This document shows positions 3,084-51,633 of a DNA stretch of 64,000 nt, one piece after another. The first letter of the stretch is position 1; the number at the start of each line of letters is the position of its first letter. The position numbers and the translations under genes were made by a program. A model generated the notes under the pieces. It saw only the letters and a program-made list of their open reading frames with translations. It was not told the origin of the DNA and ran no database searches. Origin of the DNA: an uncultured Planctomycetota bacterium (GTDB lineage: Bacteria; Planctomycetota; Planctomycetia; Gemmatales; Gemmataceae); NCBI GenBank assembly GCA_963849325.1, contig CAWKHF010000007.1:512001-576000 (forward strand), in the 5' to 3' direction.

Positions 3084-3770
3084 TCACGTTCCGCGTCGAT
3101 TGCCATACAGTTCGATGTGCAAACGCGGACAGTAGCGGAAGCCGTGCTGTTTGCATACCTCGGCCAGCCAGGCGCCGCGGCGGGCCAGTTCCTCGGAGCT
3201 GGTCCCCTGCGGCATCAGCAGCACCTTGGTCGGGTCCACGTCGCGCAGCCCGGCCACGATTTCGTGTACCTCGGCCACGTCTGCGGCCTGGTCGATGACG
3301 AATTTGAGCTGATAGTCCGAGCGCTCCATGAACGCCTGGATGACGTCCCGGCGCAGACGCAGCCGGTCGTGGCGGGCGGCCCAGCGGCCGCCCTCGCGCT
3401 CGTGCGGGATCGAGTTCGTCAGCTTCGGACTGAGGCTGGCCAGGTCGCACGCCACTTCCTTGAAGATCACGCCCGCCGTCTCGATGGTGATGTGATAGCC
3501 GCGCTCGCGCAGGCCGGCGCACAGCTCTTCGATGCCCGCCGCGATGAACGGTTCGCCGCCGGTGACAACGACGTGTCGCGTGGGGAATGAGGCCAGGCGC
3601 GCCAGGATCTCGTCAATGCGGAGCGGCTCTCCCCGCGGCCGCCAGGACGTGTATTCCGAATCGCACCAGACGCAGCGCAGCGGGCAGCCGGTGGTGCGCA
3701 CGAACGCCGACGGCACACCCAGGAGCCGGCCCTCGCCCTGAATCGAAAAGAAAAGGTCCGCGATCTTCAT
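3084..3770 (-). CDS. queE: 7-carboxy-7-deazaguanine synthase (radical SAM)
   Basis: FFSIQGEG, CPLRCVWCD (CxxxCxxC), VTGGEP, LSPKL, PRLH. Confidence 0.9.
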   Translation of the reverse strand: MKIADLFFSIQGEGRLLGVPSAFVRTTGCPLRCVWCDSEYTSWRPRGEPLRIDEILARLASFPTRHVVVTGGEPFIAAGIEELCAGLRERGYHITIETAGVIFKEVACDLASLSPKLTNSIPHEREGGRWAARHDRLRLRRDVIQAFMERSDYQLKFVIDQAADVAEVHEIVAGLRDVDPTKVLLMPQGTSSEELARRGAWLAEVCKQHGFRYCPRLHIELYGNRRGT

Positions 3771-3867: not shown

Positions 3868-4820
3868 TCACCAGTCGGAAGCGAGCGGGTTGCCGTCGCG
3901 CGGGTCGCAGGCGTTGGCCCAGGTGGCCGGGCTGATGCCCTCGGCGACGAAGCGAACGCTGCCGTCGCCCAGGCCGACGTTCGTGCCGCCGGTGTGGCCG
4001 GACTGGCCGCGTCCGGGATCGCAATTGGTGAACGGCTGCGGCCGTACCTGGAACAACTCGCACGGGGCGTAACCGGGTGAGGCGTTCTTGAGCACGTTGT
4101 TGTGGCACAGCATCGGCCGCCATTTCAACGTCGAGTCGGACCACAGCGAGCCGAAGGCGAACGACGCATCACCCCACAGACCGCACGAGGCGTAGACCTC
4201 GCCGAAGAGGACCGTGTTCGACAGGCCGTCCGGCACCGAACGCGGCAGGGCGGCGGACCCCTGGACGCAGTCGAAATCACTGTTGCCGTTGGGATTGCCG
4301 AAGACGTAGTAGTTGGCGCCGTAGCAGCCGGCGGCGAAGCTGTCGGCGCCCGCATAGGTGGTCGTGCAGTAGCCGTTGGCGACCGACGGGTCCGACGGAC
4401 AGACATACGTCTTGATGACCGTCTGATACTGTCCGCCGCAATAGCCGCCGCTGTAATTGGAGCTGCGCGGGATGTCGCCTTTGACCAACAGGTTGTAGAC
4501 GTTTTGCTGTTCCAAATAGGGCAACAGGAAGGAGAAGCACGTCCAGGCGCCGCCGTTGTAACAGGGGGCCGCCTCCGTCAGGGCCGTCCAGCCGTCCGGG
4601 CGCACAAGGGCGGCAGCACTTGCATCGTGTCGTTGATGTTCTGCGTCGCCAGGCCGATTTGCTGGAGGTTGTTCTGACACTGGACGCGGTTGGCCGCCTC
4701 ACGCACTTTTTGCACCGCCGGCAAGAGCAGGGCGAGCAGCACGGCGAGAATAGCGAGGACCACCAGTAGTTCGATGAGCGTGAATCCACTCCGGTGGCCG
4801 TCTCGGCAAGGCGGGAACAT
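3868..4820 (-). CDS. DUF1559 prepilin-type protein (frameshift near 4600)
   Basis: [10 protein letters not shown]...[21 protein letters not shown]-terminal H-X9-DG ([14 protein letters not shown]). Confidence 0.9.
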
Positions 4821-9357: not shown

Positions 9358-10602
9358 GTGCATGTGCAGCCTGAAGTCTACCAGCACACCTTCGCCAATG
9401 GACTGACCTTGCTGGCCGAGCGCATGGAGCACGTGCGTTCGGCCGCCCTCAATTTTCTGGTGCCGGCCGGCTGCGTCTACGACCCGCCCGACCAGCTCGG
9501 CGTCGCCGCCGTGCTCGCCGACCTCATCACGCGCGGCGCCGGGCCGCGCGACAGCCACGAGCTGACGTTGGCCCTGGACAACCTCGGCCTGGATCGCAGC
9601 GAGAGCGTCGGCCTGATGCACACGCGATTCTGGGGCGCCACCGTCGCCCGCAACATCCCCGCCGCGCTCGAAATCTACGCCGACATCCTTCGCCGTCCGC
9701 ACCTGCCCGACGATGAGGTGGACGCCGTGAAGGCCCTCGCCCTGCAGGACCTGCGCGGCCTGGAAGACGAGCCGCGCTCCAAGGTGCTCATCGAGCTGCG
9801 CAAGCACTATTACCCGACGCCGCTGAGCAACGATCATCGCGGTACGGTCGAGGGCATCAATCGTTTGACCGGCGACCTCATCCGCGCTCAGCATCGCCGT
9901 TTGTTTCATCCCGCCGGCACCATCCTGTCGGTGGCCGGCAATATCGCCTGGCAGCCGCTGCTCGACCAGGTGGGCCGTCTGTTCGGCGACTGGACCGGCC
10001 AGTCCGAAACGCCCCTCTCGTGCGGCCCGCAGCCGGACACTCGCGCCCACGTCGCCAAGGAACTGGAACAGACGCAGATCGGCGTCGCCTACGCCAGCGT
10101 TCCCATCGGCGATCCGGAGTATTACGCTGCCCTGGGCGCCGTCAATGTCCTGTCGGGCAACATGAGTTCGCGCCTGTTCACGGAGGTACGCGAGAAAGAG
10201 GGACTGTGCTACTCGGTGTGGGCGACCTATCAGACGCTGAAGGATCGCGCTCGCGTCATCTGCTACGCCGGCTCGCGCAACGAACGCGCCCAGCGTACCC
10301 TCGACGTACTGCTGCGCGAGCTGCGGCGACTGCCCGAGGGCGTCGAAGCCGACGAGGTCGAACGCGTCCAGGCCGGCCTCAAGTCGTCGCTCATCATGCA
10401 GCAGGAATCGACCGCCGGCCGCGCCCTGTCGCTGGCCTCCGACTGGTACTACCTCGGCCGCGTGCGCAGCTTCGACGAGATCCAGGCGGCGATCGATGGA
10501 CTGACGCCTGAGAACATCGGCCAGCACGTGCGCCGCTGTCCGCCGCGCGATTTCACCATCGTCACCCTCGGACCCAAACCCTTAACCGCGAATGAGCATT
10601 AA
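9358..10602 (+). CDS. M16B peptidase, non-catalytic-type subunit
   Basis: M16 features (SSRLFTEVREKEGLCYSV) but HxxEH absent. Confidence 0.85.
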   Translation: MHVQPEVYQHTFANGLTLLAERMEHVRSAALNFLVPAGCVYDPPDQLGVAAVLADLITRGAGPRDSHELTLALDNLGLDRSESVGLMHTRFWGATVARNIPAALEIYADILRRPHLPDDEVDAVKALALQDLRGLEDEPRSKVLIELRKHYYPTPLSNDHRGTVEGINRLTGDLIRAQHRRLFHPAGTILSVAGNIAWQPLLDQVGRLFGDWTGQSETPLSCGPQPDTRAHVAKELEQTQIGVAYASVPIGDPEYYAALGAVNVLSGNMSSRLFTEVREKEGLCYSVWATYQTLKDRARVICYAGSRNERAQRTLDVLLRELRRLPEGVEADEVERVQAGLKSSLIMQQESTAGRALSLASDWYYLGRVRSFDEIQAAIDGLTPENIGQHVRRCPPRDFTIVTLGPKPLTANEH

Positions 10603-10719
10603 AACCACGAATCACACGAATAACACGAATAAATACAAAAGACAAAACACACCGATAATGGAGGCGTATTCTATTTCTGTCTTTCTTTTATTTGTGTGAT
10701 TCGTGTGATTCGTGGTTTT
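10601..10719. repeat. Palindromic element, AACCACGAATCACACGAA family
   Basis: Inverted arms of 9-bp units; same family at 15901-15980. Confidence 0.85.
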
Positions 10720-15894: not shown

Positions 15895-15900
15895 GAGAAC

Positions 15901-15980
15901 AACCACGAATCACACGAATCACACGAATAAAAAAAGATTTGATTTGTCTCTTATTCGTGTGATTCGTGTGATTCGTGGTT
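15901..15980. repeat. Palindromic element, AACCACGAATCACACGAA family
   Basis: Same arms as 10601-10719. Confidence 0.85.
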
Positions 15981-15999
15981 TGTCTTGAGGAGCCAACGT

Positions 16000-26827: not shown

Positions 26828-26996
26828 CGGGGCACCTCCGACCGCCAGTCTACAGCAACCGACGAGCCAAGAGCAAGCGCGGGCCGCCGAACGACACAGC
26901 TCAGATGGGGATGATGCCGGGTTGCTCCCACCGACGACAAGCCGGCGGTATTATGGAGTAACCCAGTAAAAGCCACCCCATCTGGAGCAACCCGAC

Positions 26997-28010
26997 ATGT
27001 CCACCACTCTACCACTGTTCGTCGGACTGGACTACTCCCAACACGCCGTCCAACTGTGCGTCTTGGACCCCACGGGTCAGGTCTTGTGTAACCGCGCCGT
27101 GCCGGACTCCGCCGACGCCATCGATCAGGCCGTCCGGCGATTCGGTGCCGTCCGCGGCGCCGCCCTGGAAGCCTGCACCGGAGCCGCCAACCTCGCCGAA
27201 GAACTCGCCGACCGCTACGCCTGGCCCGTCCACCTCGCCCACCCCGGATTCGTCAGCCGCATGAAACAGTCGCCCGACAAAACCGACTTCTCCGACGCCC
27301 GCGTCCTGGCCGACCTCGAACGGGTCGGCTACCTACCCCGCGTCTGGATTGCACCCCAGCAGCTCCGTGAACTCCGTACCCTGGTCCGCGACCGCCAACA
27401 ACTGGCCGCCCAGCGACGCAACCTCAAGCTCCAGATCGGTGCCCTGCTACGGGAACACCGCCTACGCTGTAGCCACAACCGCTGGACGCGGGCCTGGCAC
27501 GCCTGGTTGGAGCATCAAGCTCAACTGCCCGAACAAGCACGCTGGGTCATGCAACAACGCCTGCGTCGGCTGGCCTGGATCGTCCAGGAGATCCGCACCG
27601 TCGAAGAACGTCTCGAACAAGTCACCGCTGTGGACGGCACCGTAACTTGGCTGCGGACGATCAAGGGCATTGGTCCGGTCACCGCCTGGACGTTGCGGGC
27701 CGAGATCGGTCGCTTCGACCGTTTCCGAACCGGCAAGCAGTTGGCGCGGTACTGCGGCCTGACGCCGTGCAACCGCTCCTCGGGCGTGCGTGAGGCCGAC
27801 GCCGGTTTGATCCGGGCGGCCAATCCCGAACTGCGTCGCGTGCTCATCGAGGCGGCCTGGCTGTTGGCTCGTCTGCAGCCGCGTTGGCGGCAACTGGCCG
27901 AGCGTCTGAAGGCACGGGGCAAACCGAGTACGGTGGTGATAGCGGCCGTGGCCAACCGCTTCGTGCGTTGGTTGTACCACGAAGGAGTCCGCCAACAGGC
28001 GGCGGCCTGA
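26997..28010 (+). CDS. IS110-family DEDD recombinase/transposase
   Basis: GLD, ALE, KTDFSDA (DEDD); KGIGPVTA, YCGLTPCNRSSG (catalytic Ser region). Confidence 0.95.
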   Translation: MSTTLPLFVGLDYSQHAVQLCVLDPTGQVLCNRAVPDSADAIDQAVRRFGAVRGAALEACTGAANLAEELADRYAWPVHLAHPGFVSRMKQSPDKTDFSDARVLADLERVGYLPRVWIAPQQLRELRTLVRDRQQLAAQRRNLKLQIGALLREHRLRCSHNRWTRAWHAWLEHQAQLPEQARWVMQQRLRRLAWIVQEIRTVEERLEQVTAVDGTVTWLRTIKGIGPVTAWTLRAEIGRFDRFRTGKQLARYCGLTPCNRSSGVREADAGLIRAANPELRRVLIEAAWLLARLQPRWRQLAERLKARGKPSTVVIAAVANRFVRWLYHEGVRQQAAA

Positions 28011-28039
28011 CGGATAGTGACAAGGCGTTGTCATTGTCG

Positions 28040-28200
28040 GGGGAGTTCCTGAGCGGTTGCGGGTGTGCTCGGCCGGCTGCTGGGGTTTAATCCTCGCGCT
28101 CAGATGGGGCAGCCCGCAACCTTTCTTCGCATCCCATTTGGGCAGGGTCTTGAACCCACGCTCGGATAAGAAGCATGGGAGCCCCAACAGCGTCGGCGTC
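28040..28200 (+). ncRNA. Predicted bridge/seekRNA of element 1 (boundaries approximate)
   Basis: Stem GGTTGCGGG/CCCGCAACC enclosing GCCGGCTGCT (reverse complement of right target) and GCTCAG (left target); next loop has donor-like CATCCCAT and AGAAG. Confidence 0.75.
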
Positions 28201-28518
28201 CTGCCGAAGATTTCGCCGCCTCCGTGCGGCGACCAGGGGCGCTCATTGCCGCCCCCTGGACCCCCGGCTAGCCTCTCTCTGTTCCGGGAGGAAGAGAGGA
28301 GACTAACGCCGAGAAAAGGTGATTTTGCTCTTGACGAGTGGCCTGGCATCATAGAAGCAGCCGGCTCACGCGGGAGGAGGCGTGATGTCGCGCGAAACCG
28401 TTAGTCGCGTGGCCGGTCTGCCGCAGCGACTGGATACTCATGAAGGCTCTTGAAGCACACTTGAAGGAGACAGCACTCAGCCGCTGTCTCCTTCACCTGC
28501 TAACAACGAGAGGTCTTC

Positions 28519-29568
28519 ATGCGCTACTTCCAACCTACACCTGACACTCGATTCTATGCCGGTGTCGATCTCCACGCCAGATCCCTCTTTCTTGTTGTCC
28601 TCGACCACACCGGACAGATTCGCTACGCACGCAATCTCCCCGCCGCACCCCAGCCCTTCCGCAAAGCCATCACACCTTTCCGCGATGGACTCGTCGTCGG
28701 CTGCGAGTGCATGCACTGCTGGTACTGGCTGGCCGACGCCTGCCGCGACGACAACATCCCCTTCCGGCTCGGACACGCCTGGGCAATGAAAGCCGTCCAC
28801 GGCAGCAAGACCAAATGCGACCGTAAAGACGCCGAGGCCATCGCCCACCTGCTCAAGGGCGGCAACTTCCCGCTCGCCTATGCCTACCCCAAAGAACGAC
28901 GTGGACTCCGCGACCTGCTCCGCGCACGCCTCCGCCTGGTCCGCCAACGCGCCGAACTCTACGGACACGTCCACACCGCACGACGACAGCTCAACTTGCC
29001 GCCCATCTCCAACGATGTCAAATACAAGTCCAAGCGTGCCAGCGTCCTGGCCGACATCGACGACGACTGCGTCCGTCGCCGCGTCGAGGCCGACCTGTCG
29101 CTGCTGGAGCCGCTCGATACCACCATCCGACGACTGGAGAAGGACATCGAGGTCGCCGCACGACAGCACTATGCCACCGAGATGGCCGTGCTGCAATCGA
29201 CACCCGGCGTCGGCCTCGTCATCGCCCTGACCATCCTTTTGGAGATCGACACCCTCGAACGCTTCGACACCCGCCAACAGTTCTGCTCCTATGCCCGGCT
29301 ATGCGGCGCCCGCCAGGAGTCGGCCGGCAAGAAGGTGGGCACGGGCAACGCCAAGCAGGGCAACGCCTGGCTGAAGTGGGCCTTCTCCGAGGCGGCCGTA
29401 CTCAGCGCCCAGAAGAACGAACGCATCGGCCAGTACCTGGACAAGCTGTCGGGCCGTCTGGGCCAAGCCAAAGCCTTGTCGGCATTGGCCCACAAGCTGG
29501 GACGAGCCTTCTACCACATGCTCCACAAAAAGGAGGTCTTTCAGATCGACCAATTCCTGAGACACTGA
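28519..29568 (+). CDS. IS110-family DEDD recombinase/transposase
   Basis: GVDLH, GCE, KCDRKDA; PGVG, YARLCGARQESAGK. Confidence 0.95.
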   Translation: MRYFQPTPDTRFYAGVDLHARSLFLVVLDHTGQIRYARNLPAAPQPFRKAITPFRDGLVVGCECMHCWYWLADACRDDNIPFRLGHAWAMKAVHGSKTKCDRKDAEAIAHLLKGGNFPLAYAYPKERRGLRDLLRARLRLVRQRAELYGHVHTARRQLNLPPISNDVKYKSKRASVLADIDDDCVRRRVEADLSLLEPLDTTIRRLEKDIEVAARQHYATEMAVLQSTPGVGLVIALTILLEIDTLERFDTRQQFCSYARLCGARQESAGKKVGTGNAKQGNAWLKWAFSEAAVLSAQKNERIGQYLDKLSGRLGQAKALSALAHKLGRAFYHMLHKKEVFQIDQFLRH

Positions 29569-29575
29569 GAAGCCA

Positions 29576-30090
29576 GGGCGCGGCCGGCGAGCCGAAGCCG
29601 AACGGGAGCCGCTACGGGCTAACCCTTACGACGACCCCCACCATCCAGGGAGCATCGACTCCGCAGTGGGGGTCCGGGACCGCCCAGGCATCCAGCCGCT
29701 TTGATGGGACGCCGGCCGCGTCCGTATTATTTCGACCGCGGTGGTCGCAAAAACAGGCCGCGATCCGCCGGTGGGTCGGGGGACCAACGGGATCAGCGTA
29801 ACGCTGTCCCAAGGAATCGGGCTTGGCTTTGAGCCATCCCACGTCCTCCCGACCCCCGCCAGACCGCGACCCGTGATCGCAAGGAGCCATTCGCCCGGAC
29901 GATCCGCCCCAGTCGCCAGCCTGGCCGAACGGGACGCTCCTTTGGGGGAGTGAGCCAGTCGCTTTTTGAATGGCGGCGAAGCTGGGAACGTATGAATATC
30001 GGGACCGGCCAGGGCAGGTTCCCTGGCACAGCCGCCTGGTCCTTCGGGTCTGGGCCGCCGGAGTCCGCATGAGTGTTGGGTGCGGTTCGC
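29576..30090 (+). ncRNA. Predicted long, two-module bridge/seekRNA region of element 2 (boundaries approximate)
   Basis: Two stem-enclosed modules, each with AGCC..GCCGAACGGGA ... CCAGyCGCTTT..GA(A)TGG; donor-matching ATGAATATC and ATGAGTG follow module B. Confidence 0.6.
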
Positions 30091-30169
30091 CTCGGCCGTG
30101 GGCCGAAGGTGTTCCGCGTCCGTCGCTGATATCCAAGCCGGATCGCCGAGGACGATTGCTCACTGCCGC

Positions 30170-30361
30170 TGCAACCTTGTTCGGTCATCCTTCCGGCAAG
30201 AAAAACGCCGGAGATACCCGTTCCCGTGGAAAATATTTTTACTTGACACCAAGAGCCTTATGAGTGCAACCTTGTTCGGTCATCCTTCCGGCAAGAAAAA
30301 CGCCGGAGATACCCGTTCCCGTGGAAAATATTTTTACTTGACACCAAGAGCCTTATGAGTG
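30170..30361 (+). repeat. Exact tandem duplication (period 95 bp) of the right end of element 2
   Basis: TGCAACCTTGTTCGG...TTGACACCAAGAGCCTTATGAGTG at 30170-30266 and 30265-30361. Confidence 0.95.
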
Positions 30362-30473
30362 TTCGGCGTCTGGTGTATTGTCGCTGACTCCCGCCGAACG
30401 ATAACTAAGTTAGTCGCTGGGTGACGAACAATAAATCCTCTCTCGTCCATCCCTTCCGCTTTGCTCTTGGAGC

Positions 30474-39044: not shown

Positions 39045-40773
39045 ATGGAACGATTCGGCAGGTTCATCCTTGTCCTCCCGCCTCTGCTGTTGCCGTGGTT
39101 TGTGTCGTTGCCCTGCCGCGCCCAGCCCCCGACCCCTGCGCCGACGATAACCGTCCCGACCCCTCCGCCAGCGGGCGGCGTTGCCGAGCGGACTCCGTTC
39201 CCTCAACAGCTTGAGACGACCGCGCAGCCAAGCCTGAAGTCTCCCCTGGAGGTGCCACCGCCGGCCAGCGGCGAAGTCGTGGAGATGAAACTTCCACCCC
39301 TGGAGCCGGGCGATCGGCGTTTTCCGATCAACCTGGCCACGGCCTTGCGACTGGCCGACGCTCGGCCGTTAATGGTGGCCGCCGCCCAGGCCAGCGCCTG
39401 GGTGGCCGAAGCGAAACTCCAGAAGGCCAAGGTCCTCTGGGTTCCCTCTTTTATGATGAACGCCGTTTACATGCGGCACGATGGCTACGGCCCAGACTTC
39501 AACGGCGGCATTAACATTCCTCAGGGCGAAAATGCTTTCGGGCAACCTGCGCCCGGCAGTTTTGGCAAACCCCTGAACCAGAACCTCAACTGGTTCTTCT
39601 CCGGTGTCTCGCTGTATCAGGCCGTCGCCATGACCGACGCGATTTTTCAGCCGTTGGCCGCGCGGCAAGATCTCAATGCCAAACGCTGGGACATTCAGAG
39701 TGCCAAAAATAATGTCCTGCTGGAAACCGCCTCCGCCTATTTCAACGTCCATCGCTTCCGGGGGCGTTACACGGGTGCCCTGTACTGCGTTGAAGAAGGC
39801 CGTAAGCTCCTGGCCAAGATTAACTCGTTGAGCAAGGATCTGGTGCCGAGCGTCGAGGTGGACCGTGCCCGGAACCTACTTGCCTTCCTGGAGGTGCAGG
39901 CCGTCTCCGACCGCGAAAACTGGCGCGTTGCCAGCGCCGATCTTACGCAAGTGCTCCGTCTCGATCCTCGGGCCGTGGTCGAACCCGTGGAAAACGATCA
40001 CATGCAGTTCACCTTGATCGACCCCGACCGTTCCCTCGATGACCTGATCCCCCTCGGCCTGACCAACCGCCCGGAATTGGCCTCGCAGCAAGCGCTCATC
40101 CAGGCGACCCTGGTACGCATCCGTCAGGAGAAGATGCGGCCTCTCTTGCCCTCCATTATCCTTTCGGGTTGGCAAACGCCGGGCGGCATGACGACCCAGG
40201 CCGGCATTTTCGCGACCGGCAACGGCGGGAAGCTTAATTTGTGGAGTTTCCGCGACGACATCAGCACGCAGATAGTCTGGCAAATGCAAAACTTGGGCTT
40301 TGGCAACGCCGCCTTAATCAAGAAGCGGCGCGGAGAGCAATCGCAGGCCACCGCGGAGTTGTTCCGCTTGCAAGACGCCGTCGCCTCGGATATTACCCAG
40401 GCCCAAGCAAAATTGCAATCGGCGGCCGCCCGCGTCGTCCAGGCCGAACGTTCGTTGCAAACGAGCCTTGTCACCTTCCAAAAGAACCTGGAGGGTCTGG
40501 GCCAAACGCGGCGATTTGGGAACCTCCTCGAATTGGTCTACCGGCCGCAGGAAGTGGTCTATGCCCTCAAGCTGTTGAAGCTGGCATTTGACGAGTATTT
40601 CGGCACGGTAGCGGAGTACAACACGGCGCAATTCGAGTTGTTCCACGCGCCTCGGTTATCCGGCGCGGGAAATCTCGTTCCTCCAGACGCCCGGCGAAAT
40701 CGCCCCCGTAGACACGTCGCGGCCCAATTATCTGCCCTCGGTCGGCACAGGACCGCCGCCAGCGACACGCTAA
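39045..40773 (+). CDS. TolC-family outer membrane protein, paralog 1 (frameshift near 40650)
   Basis: PINLATALRLADARP, SAYFNV, GLTNRPELA; shared C-terminus VGTGPPPATR in the shifted frame. Confidence 0.8.
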
Positions 40774-40778
40774 AAAAG

Positions 40779-41012
40779 TTCCGAGTTCGGAGTTCTGAGT
40801 TCGGAGTGAAAAACAACCGCTTGTTTCTTTCACTTAGCGTCTGTCCGGTAAGCCCCTCTCCCCCGGTACTCCGGGGGAGAGGGGTTGGGGTGAGGGGGTG
40901 TGCTTTCCGCGAGTTTCTCGCCCCCTCACCCCCAACCCCTCTCCCCCGAGTACGGGGGAGAGGGGGGCTTGTGGGACAGACTCTCAGAACTCAGAACTCC
41001 GAACTCCGAACT
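40779..41012. repeat. Nested palindromic elements
   Basis: GAGTTCG/CGAACTC heptamer arms enclosing CCCCTCTCCCCC..GGGGGAGAGGGGTTGGGGTGAGGGG and its inverse. Confidence 0.85.
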
Positions 41013-41032
41013 AGGAGATGGGAGGCTTTCGG

Positions 41033-42758
41033 ATGCGGCGATTTAGTAAGTTGTTGATCGTCCTTACGATCCTGCCGCTCTCGTGGATGGAGTCGTTGCA
41101 CGCGCAGAACCCGCCGTCGAGTGACGTCGAGCCGACTCTGCCCTCGCCGCGTTCCACGGAGGAGCGCCGACCGGGCGGCGTCACCGAGAAAACTCCCTTT
41201 CCTCAGCGGCTCGAACTGCCCGCTCAACCAGAAAAGAAATCGTCTTTGGAGCTGCCGCCGCCTCCGGGCGGCGAGGCGGTGAAGGTGGATTTGCCACCAC
41301 TGGAGCCAGGCGACCAGCGTTTTCCGATCAACCTGGCCACCGCCTTGCGACTGGCCGATGGCCGGCCGTTGATCGTGGCCGCGGCCCAGGCCAGCGCCTG
41401 GGTCGCGGAGGCACGTCTTCAGAAGGCCAAGGTTCTCTGGCTGCCGGACCTCAACCTCGGTTTCGATTATATCCGGCACGACGGTTACGGACCCGATACC
41501 ATTCGCGGCGTGAACATTTCGGCGGACCAACTCCAGGGAGGGCCTGGCGGCTTCGGTCGATCGCAGAACCAGAACATCAACTTTTTCTACGCCGGCGGCG
41601 CCACGTTCATCCTGCGAAACGCCACGGATATGATCTTCGAGCCGCTGGCCGCCCGGCAGAGGTTGAATGCCGCGCGATGGAATATCCAGACCGCCAAGAA
41701 CGATGCGTTGTTGATGACGTTGCGGGCCTACTTCAATGTCCACCGCTATCGCGGTCAATACACCGGGGCCATCGATGTCGTCCGCAAGGGCCGCAAGCTC
41801 ATTGAGGAGATAGCGGACCTGAGTAAGGAACTGGTTCCGGCCGTCGAGATCGATCGTGCCGCAACTTCGTCGCCGACCTGGAGCAGCAAGCCGTCCTGGC
41901 TCGCCAGTTCTGGCGTCGTTCCAGCGCCGATCTCACGCAAGTGCTGCGGCTCGATCCGCGCGCCGTGGTCGAACCGCTCGAACCGGATCACATGCAGCTG
42001 ACCCTGATTGACGCCGACCGTTCGCTCGACGACCTGATCCCTGTCGGCCTGACCAATCGCCCCGAATTGGCCGGACAGCAGGCGCAGGTCCAGGCGGCGA
42101 TCGGCGCATCCGTCAGGAGAAGCTGCGTCCGTTCCTGCCCGTCCTCAATATCAATGGCTTTCAAACGCCCTACGAACAGATCCAGGTGGGCGGGTTCGGC
42201 ATCGGCAACGGCGGCAAGCTGAACAACTGGAGCGGCCGCGAAGACGTCGCTCCGCAGGCGCTGTGGCAATTCGATGGGCTGGGAATGGGCAACCTGGCGA
42301 TGGTTAAGTGGCGCCGCGGCGAGCAGTCTCAGGCCACCGTCGAATTGTTCCGAGTCCAGGACGCGGTGGCCGCGGACGTAACACGGGCCCAGGCGCGGCT
42401 TCAGTCGGCGGCGGCGCGAACCGTCCAGTCCGAGCGCGAGCTGGCCGCAGCCCTCGAGAACTACAACGGCGTCGTCGCGGGGTTAAAGCAAACCAAGCGC
42501 TTTGGCAACCTTCTGAAGCTGGCCTTCCGGCCGCAGGAAGCGGTCTTCTCGCTCAAGCTGCTCCAGTTGGCCTACGACAATTACTACCTCACGGTCGCCG
42601 ACTACAACACCGCGCAATTCGAGCTATTTCACGCTCTGGGCTACCCGGCGCGGGAAATCTCGTTCTTCCGAACGCCAGGCGAGATTGCTCCCGTGGACAC
42701 GACGCGGCCCACTTTTTTGCCTGCGGTGGGCACAGGACCGCCGCCGTCACCGCGGTAG
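41033..42758 (+). CDS. TolC-family outer membrane protein, paralog 2 (frameshifts near 41860 and 42100)
   Basis: Same motifs as paralogs 1 and 3, spread over three frames. Confidence 0.8.
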
Positions 42759-42763
42759 GAGAA

Positions 42764-42827
42764 GTTCTGAGTTCTGAGTTCTGAGTGAAAACAGAACTCA
42801 GAACTCAGAACTCAGAACTCAGAACTT
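42764..42827. repeat. Palindrome of GTTCTGA/TCAGAAC heptamers
   Basis: (GTTCTGA)3 ... (CAGAACT)5. Confidence 0.85.
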
Positions 42828-42843
42828 TGGAAGGAGCCATGCC

Positions 42844-44649
42844 ATGATGGAACGGGTCAGCCGGACAGGGATCGCCCTGGCGGTCTTGCTGCTTCCGGGA
42901 CTGGGCAGAGCACGAGGCCAGGCTCCGCCGCCGGCGTCATCGCCCTCGGCGCCGGCTCCGGCCGCACCGGCGCGCGACGAGGCCGAGCGCCCGCTTCCTC
43001 CGCCGCGTCCGGTACCGTCCTCGGAGAAGGACAGCAGTCCGCCGTGGCAGAAGTCGCCCCTCGAACGTCTACCGCCTCCCGGCGGCGAGACCTTGAAGGT
43101 GGAGCCTCCGCCCCTGGCGCCCGGCGACCGGCGCTTCCCCATCAATCTGGCCGCCGCCTTGCGACTGGCCGACGGCCGGCCGATTCTCATCTCCGCCACC
43201 GCCGCCACTGTCTGGGTGGCCGAGGCGCAGCTTCAGAAGGCCAAGGTTCTGTGGCTTCCTACCATCAACTTCGCCGCCGATTACATCCGGCACGATGGCT
43301 ACGGCCCCGATTTGAATCGCGGCGTCAACGTGCCGCAGGGCGAAAACGCCCTCGGACAGAACGCGCCCGGCAGCCTGGGCAAGCCGCTCAACCAAAACGT
43401 CAACTTTTTCTACACCGGCGGCGGCCTCACGTACACGCCGTCGGAACCCAACTATTTCTATCAGCCCGAACCGGATCGACCGCAGTTGCCGGCGCCGCAG
43501 ATGGAATTGGTCACCAATATGATCTTCGAGCCGTTGCAAAAGCGGCAGATTCTCAATGCCAGTCGCTGGACCGTGCAGGCGGCCAAGAACGACTCCCTGT
43601 TCCTGACCGCGCGAAGCTACTTCGAGGTCCACAAGTATCGCGGTCAATACGCCGGCGCCATTGATGTCGTGCTGAAAGGTCGCCGACTGGTCCGGGAGAT
43701 CGCCGATCTGAGAGCGGACCTCGTTTCGGCCGTCGAGGTCGATCGTGCGCGCAGCCTGCTGGCCGACCTGGAGCAGCAAGCCGTCTCTGCCCGCGAGCAT
43801 TGGCGCGTATCCAGCGCCCGACTGTCGCAGATACTGCGACTGGACCCGCGTGCGGTGGTCGAGCCCATCGAACACGATCACTTGCAGATTACCTTGATCG
43901 ACCCCAGCCGTTCGCTCAACGACCTGATTCCCATCGCTCTAACCAACCGCCCCGAGTTGGCGGGCCATCAGGCGGAGATCCAGGCGGCGCTGATACGCAT
44001 CCGCCAGCAGAAGCTGCAGCCTTTCCTTCCCGCCGTTCTTATGAATGGCTTTCAAACGCCTTTCGAGTTAATCGAGGTCGGTGGGTACGGAGTCGGCGAT
44101 GGCGGCAAACTGAACAACTGGAGCGGTCGAGATGACCTCAGCCCGCAGATGCTGTGGATCTTTGAACAAATGGGCTTCGGCTACGTGGCAGACGTGAAGG
44201 AGAAACGCGGCATGGCGTCGGGCGCCATCGTCGAGTTGTTCAAGGTTCAAGACGCCGTTGCCGCGGACGTGACGCGATCCCAGGCGGACGTGCAGTCGAC
44301 GGCGGCTCGTGTCGTCCAGGCCGAACGCGAGGTGGAATCGGCCCTCATTAATTACAACGGCAACTACGAAGGCCTGAAGCAAACCAAGCGATTTGGCAAC
44401 GTGCTGGAGCAAGCCTTCCGGCCGCAGGAAGTGGTCTTCGCGCTTCAGCTGTTGAAGACGGCCTATGACAATTATTTCGCCACGGTGGCCGAGTACAATA
44501 CGGCGCAATTCGAGTTGTTCCACGCCCTGGGTTATCCGGCGCGGGAAATCTCGTACTTCCGGCGTCCCGGCGAAATCGCCCCGGTAGACACGGCGCGGCC
44601 TGGCTATCTGCCGCCGGTGGGCACGGGACCGCCGCCGGCAACCCGCTAA
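42844..44649 (+). CDS. TolC-family outer membrane protein, paralog 3
   Basis: Intact 601-aa ORF with signal peptide, Pro-rich linker, ALTNRPELA, YNTAQFELFHALG. Confidence 0.82.
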   Translation: MMERVSRTGIALAVLLLPGLGRARGQAPPPASSPSAPAPAAPARDEAERPLPPPRPVPSSEKDSSPPWQKSPLERLPPPGGETLKVEPPPLAPGDRRFPINLAAALRLADGRPILISATAATVWVAEAQLQKAKVLWLPTINFAADYIRHDGYGPDLNRGVNVPQGENALGQNAPGSLGKPLNQNVNFFYTGGGLTYTPSEPNYFYQPEPDRPQLPAPQMELVTNMIFEPLQKRQILNASRWTVQAAKNDSLFLTARSYFEVHKYRGQYAGAIDVVLKGRRLVREIADLRADLVSAVEVDRARSLLADLEQQAVSAREHWRVSSARLSQILRLDPRAVVEPIEHDHLQITLIDPSRSLNDLIPIALTNRPELAGHQAEIQAALIRIRQQKLQPFLPAVLMNGFQTPFELIEVGGYGVGDGGKLNNWSGRDDLSPQMLWIFEQMGFGYVADVKEKRGMASGAIVELFKVQDAVAADVTRSQADVQSTAARVVQAEREVESALINYNGNYEGLKQTKRFGNVLEQAFRPQEVVFALQLLKTAYDNYFATVAEYNTAQFELFHALGYPAREISYFRRPGEIAPVDTARPGYLPPVGTGPPPATR

Positions 44650-44715
44650 CCCGGCTATCCGTGTGGGACAGGATCTCGTCTTCTCATGACCCAGTTACCC
44701 CGGGAGGGGAAATCG

Positions 44716-48984: not shown

Positions 48985-49123
48985 TTTCACCACGGAAAAC
49001 ACGGAAAAAAGACAAAGACAACACAAAGAAAAGGCAATAAAGGAGATAAAGAGAACATTAAATATCTCTTTTAATGTTTTCTTTTGTCTTTTTTCCGTAC
49101 TTTCCGTGTTTTCCGTGGTGAAA
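48985..49123. repeat. Palindromic element, CACCACGGAAAACACGG family
   Basis: Long inverted arms between convergent thrS and ligA; same family at 51485-51633. Confidence 0.85.
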
Positions 49124-51484: not shown

Positions 51485-51633
51485 CACCACGGAAAACACG
51501 GAAAACACGGAAAAAAGACAAATTCAGGAGTTAATCAAAGGAGAGGACGGCAGTGAATTCGATCTACCTCTCTTTTGCCTCTCCGATCTTGTCTTTTGTC
51601 TTTTTTCCGTGTTTTCCGTGTTTTCCGTGGTGA
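51485..51633. repeat. Palindromic element, CACCACGGAAAACACGG family
   Basis: Same arms as 48985-49123. Confidence 0.85.

Follow-up and report, generated by a model that had tools for sequence, protein, structure and literature searches.

Bridge recombinases are under development as programmable genome-rearrangement tools, and to our knowledge all described bridge systems work with one target loop and one donor loop. Here we ask what is encoded 3' of the transposase gene of element 2, an insertion sequence in the window (the whole 64,000-nt stretch of DNA that was analysed), where an earlier note had proposed that a single recombinase is served by two complete guide RNAs in tandem. The reading that we favour, with a probability of roughly 0.55, is a three-loop guide region, made up of two target-type loops (modules A and B) and one donor loop (D), in an IS1111-type element inserted in an attC-like repeat.

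The element and its attC-like target

The element, its neighbour and their target are laid out as follows.

26886-26905 (+): left arm of the attC-like repeat, comprising the R'' box GCCGAAC and the first part of the inner repeat; interrupted by element 1
26906-28356 (+): element 1, a second IS110-family element, with PF01548 and PF02371; ends set against the empty site
28357-28431 (+): inner part plus right arm of the attC-like repeat; serves as left target of element 2 and ends in GCAGCGACT
28432-28433 (+): left core dinucleotide GG, inferred from junctions compared with empty sites
28434-30359 (+): body of element 2, IS110 family, IS1111-type
28437-28452 (+): left subterminal inverted repeat; its exact 10-nt core (28443-28452) pairs with 30345-30354, and 15/16 positions agree by eye
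28519-29568 (+): transposase (bridge recombinase) gene, 349 aa, frame open; PF01548 (E 2.4e-11) and PF02371 (E 5.9e-17)
30170-30359 (+): two perfect 95-bp tandem copies of the right end (30170-30264 and 30265-30359)
30360-30367 (+): right core TG, then the remaining R' box TTCGGC of the attC-like repeat

Element 2 belongs to the IS110 family, its protein matching both the N-terminal DEDD RuvC-like domain PF01548 (44.1 bits, cut-off 29) and the C-terminal Transposase_20 domain PF02371 (62.3 bits, cut-off 21.3). Within that family it is of the IS1111-type subgroup, which the available parts of two reports define by subterminal inverted repeats of 7-17 bp (PMC11208160) and by a longer non-coding region 3' of the gene together with a transposase of 330-350 aa (PMC11187229); its repeats, non-coding region and protein length all agree with this. 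The gene is flanked by 85 nt upstream and 791 nt downstream, the latter running from 29569 to the right end at 30359 and including the tandem duplication, each 95-bp copy of which carries the right subterminal repeat and a TTGACA box, at 30243-30248 in the first copy and 30338-30343 in the second. The 95-bp unit is single in all relatives read and in a second genomic copy on contig C12, which is 99.2% identical and has other flanks. Without the duplication the non-coding region comes to about 696 nt, as in that copy, and the length of about 690 nt first reported is right for this single-copy form and wrong for the window copy. The left junction is better written CT-GG-ATACT, with its core at 28432-28433, and the right junction GAG-TG-TTCGGC, with its core at 30360-30361. 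In a circularised element, the joined ends would give TTGACA-N17-GATACT, composed of the TTGACA at 30338-30343, 16 nt, the second core base and ATACT (from sequence only), a putative promoter that would allow transcription of the transposase gene and the guide region.

Element 2 occupies the R' box of an attC-like repeat in which element 1 is also inserted, and we set the arms of the repeat and the ends of element 1 by comparing the flanks of four element 1 copies with five empty copies of the repeat. Element 1 has a transposase gene (26997-28010), one bridge RNA encoded in the 345 nt of its 3' non-coding region, with guide matches read by eye, and three further genomic copies at 98% identity. 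In the five empty copies of the repeat and in relatives, the boxes GCCGAAC ... GTTCGGC enclose pairing arms with single unpaired bases. This combination of attC boxes and an imperfect inverted repeat, judged by eye rather than by an attC covariance model, bears out the proposal that the target is attC-like. About 15 such repeats occur in the genome, most of them scattered; the members of two pairs are separated by 0.9 and 3.9 kb. An integron integrase with a cassette array, which is also used as a criterion for attC, was not found in the assembly (84.7% complete), the best TIGR02249 match scoring 85.3 bits against a cut-off of 265. Like element 2, all relatives read are inserted directly before the TT of the R' box (G|TT), and the insertion position of element 2 is shared with the C12 copy, the C5 mini element, L002, L003, L005 and L006.

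Loops of the 3' non-coding region

Module A lies just past the stop codon and is followed by hairpin H (in planctomycete relatives), module B and donor loop D.

29576-29723 (+): module A, about 150 nt of target-loop-like RNA, with a stem, 12 compensatory pairs and orthologues in relatives
29724-29735 (+): A+T-rich linker, earlier supposed to be a donor guide; overlaps promoter-like and terminator-like matches
29756-29871 (+): hairpin H, a long helix with a three-way junction; 47 predicted pairs, 9 compensatory
29908-29986 (+): module B, a compact target-binding loop; 5' guide GCCGAAC at 29924-29930, 3' side at 29955-29973
29990-30085 (+): donor-binding loop D; 5' guide 29992-30000, complementary to the left end; 3' guide 30069-30077

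Module B is closed by a stem of 29908-29917 with 29975-29986 across a 2-nt bulge, and has 15 pairs, 5 of them compensatory, in seven relatives. Its 5' side would pair with the top strand of GTTCGGC and its 3' side would carry the sense of the left target; the right-target match is 7 nt long in the window, against 8 nt for the C12 copy, and the weaker left-target match reported previously is present, with the letters in B corrected to GAATGG against GACTGG (5/6). In the C12b copy, the B 5' guide reads CCTAAC beside a flank of GTTAGG, and A there still reads GCCGAAC. As had been noted, it is only B that precedes segments matching the junction of the element, namely ATGAATATC at 29992-30000 and ATGAGTG at 30069-30075. 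These are the guides of D, the 5' side of which would pair with the left end (8/9 positions in the window, 9/9 in four relatives), while the 3' side would represent the sense of the right end, which it matches together with a further TT. The D 3' guide and the right end change together, reading ATGAGTG/ATGAGTG in the window, ATGACGG/ATGACGG in C12b and L001, ATGCGTG/ATGCGGG in L003 and ATCCGTG/ATCCGGG in L006. D also contains two inner hairpins with compensatory changes and scores 122.2 bits with model R3. As judged from these matches and pairs, B and D together form a canonical bridge RNA; the region as a whole goes beyond the one target and one donor loop of such an RNA, as A and H share it.

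Modules A and B have near-identical loops. They hold in common the 11-mer GCCGAACGGGA (at 29597 in A and 29924 in B), which has two matches in the window against 0.07 expected (0 of 100 shuffles reached two), and their 3' sides also resemble each other (29692-29707 in A, 29955-29973 in B). Together with the stem pairing, this confirms the two modules of the earlier note, as well as its statement that both carry GCCGAAC, the complement of the attC-like R' box. The two are nevertheless distinct in covariance-model searches, in which two matches per element had been expected and the B-built models returned one significant match. Model R1 was built from 19 Gammaproteobacteria B modules, 8 of 27 having been dropped with 3' strands out of register, on a structure assigned by hand (RNAalifold predicted no pairs on the first Gammaproteobacteria B alignment). 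It matched only B, with 27 B matches in 36 sources, plus one 13-bit match elsewhere; with filters off it reached A in L026 at 3.6 bits, and in the window no match overlapped A or B. Model R2, from seven planctomycete B modules, scored B in the window at 106.5 bits and A at 8.1 bits (E 0.49), and it matched Gammaproteobacteria B modules at their exact places (14.0-15.3 bits, E 0.24-0.49). Since models of B do not detect A, we take A to be no recent copy of B.

Module A has a 14-nt stem (29576-29589 with 29710-29723, 93% complementary) that encloses a 5' loop with GCCGAAC at 29597-29603, a large inner domain and a 3' loop at 29692-29707. RNAalifold gave 37 pairs, of which 12 are compensatory, a result that none of 500 shuffles equalled. 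The module measures 143-154 nt in planctomycete and Gammaproteobacteria relatives, and GAG..AAC and T.GA in the loops do not vary across a joint alignment of 31 A modules. By eye, A is present in 6/6 planctomycete relatives, and a regular expression located it in 58 of 66 Gammaproteobacteria loci having B and D; when six of the eight misses were checked by eye, five carried A and one was a deletion derivative. It occurs additionally in L025, L031, L074 and a Nitrospirota plasmid copy. A, B and the donor loop thus co-occur in relatives of 44-93% protein identity from Planctomycetota, Gammaproteobacteria and Nitrospirota. On the sequence evidence, A is a separately conserved, structured domain, orthologous across phyla and probably much older than a recent duplication would be, and it is probably functional, because relatives in three phyla have kept it. 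The suggestion that A might be a relic does not fit a module of this kind, which is not specific to element 2.

Other approaches told us less about the region. Searching the whole window with Rfam at gathering thresholds gave no matches, and single-sequence folds give no information at this G+C content, with z values of -1.96 over the whole region and +0.70 over B plus D. Relatives at 33% identity (Variovorax, Pseudoalteromonas xiamenensis) have different non-coding regions. Two metatranscriptome runs contained 6-7% of the words sampled. Their contigs are those of relatives at 85-95% identity, not the window copy, and may in part be DNA; these contigs span the whole element, gene and non-coding region alike, and no transcript ends were seen in them.

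Guide matches across loci and the possible role of module A

A, B and D share a loop signature, in which GGGA or TGGA follows the 5' guide and AGCC-like bases precede the 3' side, and we therefore infer that A is a third recombinase-binding loop for the same attC arm. What we observed directly is the anatomy of the region, how it is conserved and how its structure covaries, together with the joint change of D and the right end and the agreement between guides and flanks. Read from these, the RNA would be expressed and bound by the recombinase, and A may take part in target choice: it could be another target guide with a different tuning, or else a hard-wired target-loop-only RNA working alongside the full bridge RNA.

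In Gammaproteobacteria, the 5' guides of A and B read CTAAC with flanks GTTAG or GTTAT, and in planctomycetes mostly CGAAC with flanks GTTCG; in L003 and the Nitrospirota copy they mismatch the flank at one position. On the left target, the Gammaproteobacteria A 3' side matches its own locus at 5.68/9 positions against 4.89/9 for other loci (reached by 0 of 5000 permutations) and the B 3' side at 5.09 against 4.61 (permutation 0.0016), significance being overstated in both cases as the loci are related and non-independent. The contiguous run of the A 3' side is 4.61 against its own target and 3.56 against other loci, with a maximum of 8 nt. On the right target, no locus-specific match was found in Gammaproteobacteria (1256 of 5000 permutations reached the observed value for A and 938 of 5000 for B), and each module pairs with only about 4.5 nt of the generic box. 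The A 3' side of planctomycete copies fits the left target poorly, at 3/6 in the window as compared with 5/6 for B. An assignment of A to the R'' arm and B to the R' arm was also considered and rejected: at the 13-15 loci where an R'' arm was found, both fit R' better (5.7 vs 3.1 of 9 for A, 4.9 vs 2.5 for B).

The best-surviving alternative, although we consider it rather doubtful, is that A is a structured 3'-UTR or regulatory element that guides no DNA, its likeness to a target loop reflecting the RNA-binding consensus of the protein. It might then act in feedback on the mRNA through recombinase binding, as a processing or stabilising domain, as a terminator or as an internal promoter for B and D. 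The position of A suits such roles, in that it begins a few bases past the stop codon in all relatives, and so does the presence of a promoter-like TTGATG-18-TATTAT at 29701-29730 (one found, 0.2 expected) and of a terminator-like stem with a T-rich tail at the 3' end of A, yet the T-rich, -10-like linker is not conserved in Gammaproteobacteria. RNAalifold pairs both 'guide' segments of A with one another (helix 2), a fold in which A may form a closed helix instead of an open guide loop. Against the regulatory reading, the variable 3' stretch of A tracks the left target of its own locus beyond what B does, over as many as 8 contiguous nt, and its 5' loop follows the R' box type of the host across phyla. 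The right-target side of A, which lacks a locus-specific match, is consistent with a regulatory role, as is the use of two loops in known complexes: solved IS621 complexes have two recombinase dimers on two loops, and in the available part of that report a third loop would have no known place in the two-dimer complex (PMC13626964).

It is also conceivable, but unlikely, that the roles are the reverse of those proposed, with A as the main target-binding loop and B accessory or vestigial. In Gammaproteobacteria A outdoes B on the left target, and on the right side it is better in 7 insertions and B in 3, with 25 ties; the A 3' side there reads TTG-AT, which takes in the first two letters of the left end, and B reads TTG-AA. 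The A 5' guide also fits the flank better than that of B in L006 and the Nitrospirota copy. However, in C12b only the B guide changes with the flank, and in the window, L003 and L005 it is the B 3' side that is the better fit to the left target. Moreover, B directly adjoins D, as the target loop does in characterised bridge RNAs, and is conserved as strongly as A.

The original proposal of two complete bridge RNAs, in which A would carry a diverged donor loop (linker plus H) and B the working one, has some resemblances in its favour: CGTAT follows both modules in the window, H and D each enclose two hairpins between GGGAC and GTCC, and R3 has a weak second match right after A (29720-29811), scoring 16.8 bits with a rough E of 1e-3 to 1e-4, with a like match in L001 (14.8 bits). 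That match contains many non-standard pairs, however, and is missing from the other six planctomycete copies at E up to 1. The stretch after A (CGTATTATTTCG) differs in all eight planctomycete copies, and the linker in every relative. H has no open loop, because its would-be guide sites pair with each other, and they are nearly invariant; it has no counterpart in the Gammaproteobacteria and Nitrospirota relatives read, which keep A without H, and is found in planctomycete relatives only. With a variable linker and a lineage-limited H, no conserved donor loop belonging to A was found. A genome search for element ends that would match the supposed donor guide of A returned the reverse complement of the linker 12-mer four times, two of them in the element itself and none of the four at an element end, and the linker 9-mer 21 times (about 4.7 expected from composition). 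With A also undetected by the B-built models, a tandem array is very improbable.

Relation to described bridge systems

The three-loop reading can be set against systems known from the available parts of the papers cited here. Element 2 resembles IS621-type bridge systems in its DEDD recombinase with Transposase_20 (PMC11208160, PMC13626964) and in having target- and donor-binding internal loops with two guide segments each and a shared core dinucleotide. It differs from them in that its RNA lies 3' of the gene with the guide order reversed, as in the IS1111 type, where the top-strand match of the seekRNA is 5' of the bottom-strand match (PMC11187229), and in its multi-branch donor loop, third module A and extra hairpin H. 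Closer likeness is seen to the IS1111 seekRNA elements ISKpn4, ISPst6 and ISPa25, which share the subterminal repeats, 3' non-coding region and protein of 330-350 aa, as well as the attC target and the order of the seekRNA matches, and which have a promoter formed by joined ends, like the one predicted for element 2 (PMC11187229). In what is available of that work, however, these elements have one target-matching RNA of 82-96 nt with a long form of 148-172 nt, and element 2 has two target-type modules. Of 72,556 plasmids searched by protein, 304 records matched, and the matches listed include no Klebsiella or Pseudomonas; the combined protein and DNA search for ISKpn4-type relatives among plasmids gave no named relatives among the matches listed.

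Two further systems have an additional RNA species. In CazIS110-1, a target-loop-only RNA cooperates with the full bridge RNA (bioRxiv 10.1101/2025.10.25.684509), so that one recombinase has two RNA species with target loops, as A and B would provide here; the short RNA supports one of two strand-transfer steps. According to the accessible part of that preprint, it is a truncated form of the same bridge RNA, whereas A is a separate target-type module of different build, encoded in the DNA. ISPpu9, also of the IS110 family, has an additional RNA module, ssr9, downstream of its transposase gene; as far as the available part of the report goes, ssr9 is an optional module that has recombination boxes of its own on either side and moves independently (PMC12288879). 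Unlike ssr9, module A is internal to the element in nearly all intact relatives, with no sign of separate movement. A bolder version of the three-loop reading, which we hold only tentatively, is that an attC-targeting clade in at least three phyla has separately evolving A and B serving one donor loop, with A as a hard-wired target-loop-only RNA. An A of this kind would widen the range of attC variants open to insertion, or would perform one strand transfer of a direct-transfer pathway.

The earlier view that no multi-unit arrangement had been described agrees with what we found in the literature, although the supplementary figures 6-7 on long seekRNAs (PMC11187229) may bear on it. A conserved second target-type loop, if real, would mean that nature multiplexes target recognition, splits the strand-transfer steps between RNAs or regulates by means of a decoy loop, and a three-loop guide system, if true, would give a natural precedent for multiplexed or dual-target bridge RNAs. 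Whatever the role of A, element 2 marks out an attC-targeting lineage whose insertion point is exactly the integron crossover box, at G|TT of the R' box, in contrast to the known IS1111-attC group, which, in the part of the report available, inserts at AA*CG about 10 bp upstream of GTTAG (PMC13604230). Insertion at exactly this point bears on the disruption or mobilisation of gene cassettes by insertion sequences.

Two target-type modules and one bridge RNA in element 2

Judged from sequence comparison, element 2 belongs to a new lineage that targets attC boxes, and the guide region in its 3' non-coding sequence is best described as holding one additional, conserved target-type module. Subterminal inverted repeats and the 3' non-coding region place this element, on its sequence features, in the IS1111 type of the IS110 family, by criteria set out in section 6 of PMC11187229 and in PMC11208160. 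An earlier note had described two RNA modules resembling target loops, A and B, and read them as a tandem array of two guide RNAs; the sequence bears out both modules at their coordinates. The observation is confirmed and the interpretation partly supported.

Features of elements 1 and 2
~26906-28356, element 1, in the left arm of an attC-like repeat (flank comparison)
26997-28010, element 1 ORF, with the same two IS110-family transposase domains as element 2
28434-30359, element 2 body (junctions and copy comparison)
28519-29568, element 2 ORF (349 aa), with both IS110-family transposase domains
29576-29589 with 29710-29723, closing stem of A (14 nt, 93% complementary)
29724-29735, A+T-rich linker after A
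29756-29871, hairpin H
29908-29917 with 29975-29986, closing stem of B
29990-30085, donor-binding loop D

A and B have in common the 11-mer GCCGAACGGGA (at 29597 and 29924), found twice in the 64 kb against 0.07 expected, a count that none of 100 shuffles reached, and their 3' sides are similar (29692-29707 and 29955-29973). Located 3' of B are ATGAATATC (29992-30000) and ATGAGTG (30069-30075).

The canonical bridge RNA of element 2 is B plus D. The guide order in B agrees with that published for IS1111-type RNAs, in which, according to PMC11187229, the top-strand match lies 5' of the bottom-strand match. The 5' side of B is the complement of GTTCGGC over 7 nt in the window and 8 nt in the C12 copy, and its 3' side carries GAATGG, the left target being GACTGG. 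In C12b, a 5'-truncated relative in the same genome (85.7% identity), the 5' guide of B is CCTAAC and the flank GTTAGG, with A unchanged. The 5' side of D is complementary to the left end (8/9 in the window, 9/9 in several relatives), while its 3' side is a copy of the right end and varies together with it across copies. Pairs in the B stems are kept, with five compensatory changes among seven sequences, and the inner hairpins of D covary.

Donor-loop 3' side and right end in copies of the element
Window: ATGAGTG; right end ATGAGTG
C12b and L001 (a relative): ATGACGG; right end ATGACGG
L003 (a relative): ATGCGTG; right end ATGCGGG
L006 (a relative): ATCCGTG; right end ATCCGGG

Insertion site, copies and derivatives

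Whole-genome BLAST and flank comparison put elements 1 and 2 inside one copy of a dispersed repeat of ~120 bp, with GCCGAAC at one end, GTTCGGC at the other and imperfect inverted arms between, the architecture of an attC site. We call the site attC-like because no match to an integron integrase in the assembly (84.7% complete) scores as high as the family cut-off. The genome holds about 15 copies of the repeat, some of them empty. Element 2 lies immediately 5' of TTCGGC of the right box, with junctions CT-GG-ATACT (left) and GAG-TG-TTCGGC (right); GG stands at both cores in most relatives. The attC-targeting IS1111 elements ISKpn4, ISPst6 and ISPa25 insert ~10 bp upstream of GTTAG, according to a table in PMC13604230, whereas the insertion point of element 2 falls in the right box itself, next to its TTCGGC; in plasmid searches these three were not close relatives of element 2 among the matches listed.

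A second copy of element 2 (the C12 copy, 99.2% identity) lies inside another attC-like repeat. A mini element that lacks the transposase gene (C5:954488-954889) also occupies an attC-like repeat; in it, 96 bp of left end run straight into the 3' half of B, which is followed by a complete donor loop and the right end. In the window copy only, the terminal 95 bp of element 2 stand twice, as a perfect tandem duplication (30170-30264, 30265-30359) that is absent from the C12 copy. Its joint consists of the right end, TG and the unit start, and the sequence before the first unit (...GCCGC-TG) is similar to the left target plus core. Such right-end duplications look as if the recombinase had carried out an unequal exchange within its own end, using a pseudo-target there. 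A 22-bp right-end duplication in relative L019 (~4000-4045) is likewise TG-bounded. Relative L005 has a ~220-nt insertion in its right-end region (4190-4410), flanked by a short direct repeat, and the unusual CCGAGCG in place of TTCGGC after its right end.

Element 1, a different member of the IS110 family, has three more genomic copies (98% identity). Reading of its 345-nt 3' region by eye shows a single target loop (~28060-28130) and a single donor loop (~28135-28205), and 12 nt that match the left junction of element 1.

Conservation of module A

Relatives were sought in one genome per species and the best 80 loci kept: six from Planctomycetota (93-67% identity) and 74 from marine Gammaproteobacteria (45-50%). 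In all six planctomycete loci A directly follows the stop codon, then come H and B; D is present in five, all those whose contig continues. The gammaproteobacterial elements are only ~1.5 kb long and keep the order A-B-D; their linker is short and they lack H. A regular expression found B and D in 66 of the 74 and A in 58 of those 66; six of the eight misses were inspected, of which five had A in variant spelling and one was a deletion derivative. Six of the eight loci lacking the D anchor were read (L068 and L075 left out): all three modules are present in L025 and L074, L031 carries A and B up to an interruption, L030 is interrupted within A, L029 is masked, and L064 is a deletion derivative (3650-3680) with the 3' side of A joined straight to that of D. 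A, B and D, adjoining TTCGGCC, also occur on a Candidatus Manganitrophus plasmid (Nitrospirota, 44% identity).

A measures 143-154 nt in Planctomycetota and Gammaproteobacteria alike. The loop letters align across 31 A modules, with GAG..AAC and T.GA invariant, and across eight sequences from planctomycetes compensatory changes occur at 12 of the 37 pairs predicted (0/500 shuffles as high). A is thus an old, conserved module, present in relatives from three phyla, and neither a recent duplicate nor the relic that the earlier note had allowed for.

In two metatranscriptome contigs that come from relatives, 71-77 nt within A are missing (window 29611-29687), so that some relatives may carry a compact A without the inner domain. 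L021 (1400-1540; Gammaproteobacteria) holds a deletion derivative that has no A and has lost the greater part of the transposase gene. At C9:357079 in the genome, a short stretch similar to the A 3' loop is joined to linker without a stem strand; it perhaps represents a piece of a related element.

A second donor loop and the role of A

The earlier note expected a covariance model to match twice if the region held two units; models built from B gave one significant match per element. R1, from 19 gammaproteobacterial B modules, matches B only. R2, from seven planctomycete B modules, gives B 106.5 bits against 8.1 bits (E 0.49) for the start of A, and it locates gammaproteobacterial B modules at their exact positions (14.0-15.3 bits), which argues that B is orthologous across phyla and A a distinct module. 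By the criterion of the note, the single match counts against a tandem duplicate. It does not weigh against a target-type loop as such in A, since the common letters lie only in the loops.

Nor does A appear to specify a different donor. The linker, taken earlier for a donor guide, differs in every planctomycete copy, and no element ends matching it were found in the genome. H, not found outside planctomycetes among the relatives compared, forms a long helix that includes a three-way junction; nine of its pairs are compensatory, and its would-be guide positions are paired with one another. R3, a donor-loop model, has a weak second match downstream of A in two copies: the window, at 16.8 bits and with many non-standard pairs, and L001, at 14.8 bits. 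The other six planctomycete copies have none. Of the proposed array, then, the two target-like modules stand, and a working second donor loop is, on these comparisons, absent; A plus H may be a remote descendant of a duplicated unit.

The same letters surround the loops of A, B and D, which suggests a single protein-binding mode. In the gammaproteobacterial set, the variable part of the A 3' side agrees with the left target at the same locus in 5.68 of 9 positions, versus 4.89 with those at other loci, with runs up to 8 nt (0/5000 permutations as high), and B at 5.09 versus 4.61 (permutation 0.0016), figures overstated because the loci are related. Neither module gave a locus-specific signal on the right-target side. 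Across phyla the 5' guides of both track the host box, CTAAC going with a GTTAG or GTTAT flank and CGAAC, in most cases, with GTTCG; L003, L005, L006 and the Nitrospirota copy are exceptions. In a direct-transfer pathway described in a preprint (bioRxiv 10.1101/2025.10.25.684509), a target-loop-only RNA is reported to cooperate with the complete bridge RNA; by analogy, A might be a hard-wired version of an RNA of this kind.

Alternatively, A could serve in regulation or processing: its 3' end and the linker overlap both a promoter-like site (TTGATG-18-TATTAT, 29701-29730; one found versus 0.2 expected) and a terminator-like stem whose tail is T-rich (29707-29733), and RNAalifold pairs the guide segments of A with each other. 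The A+T-rich patch there is kept in close relatives, in a genome of 65% G+C. A further reading reverses the roles of A and B. One loop per palindrome arm was rejected, since both modules fit the R' (GTTCGGC) arm rather than R'' (GCCGAAC).

The published IS110/IS1111 accounts compared here have one target-matching RNA per element, whereas the element 2 region has an extra target-type module; a full-text literature search, with supplementary figures outside its reach, found no mention of two target loops. Such a module is of real interest for the bridge-recombinase field.

Elsewhere in the window, 9-nt units similar to CACGAAT or to CACGGAAAA form inverted arrays at 10594-10719, 15896-15985, 48985-49123 and 51485-51633, which resemble iterated protein-binding sites. 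Three tandem paralogous units of ~1.9-2.0 kb (63-84% identity) occupy 39235-44650, with short periodic repeats, such as CTCAGAA units, between them.
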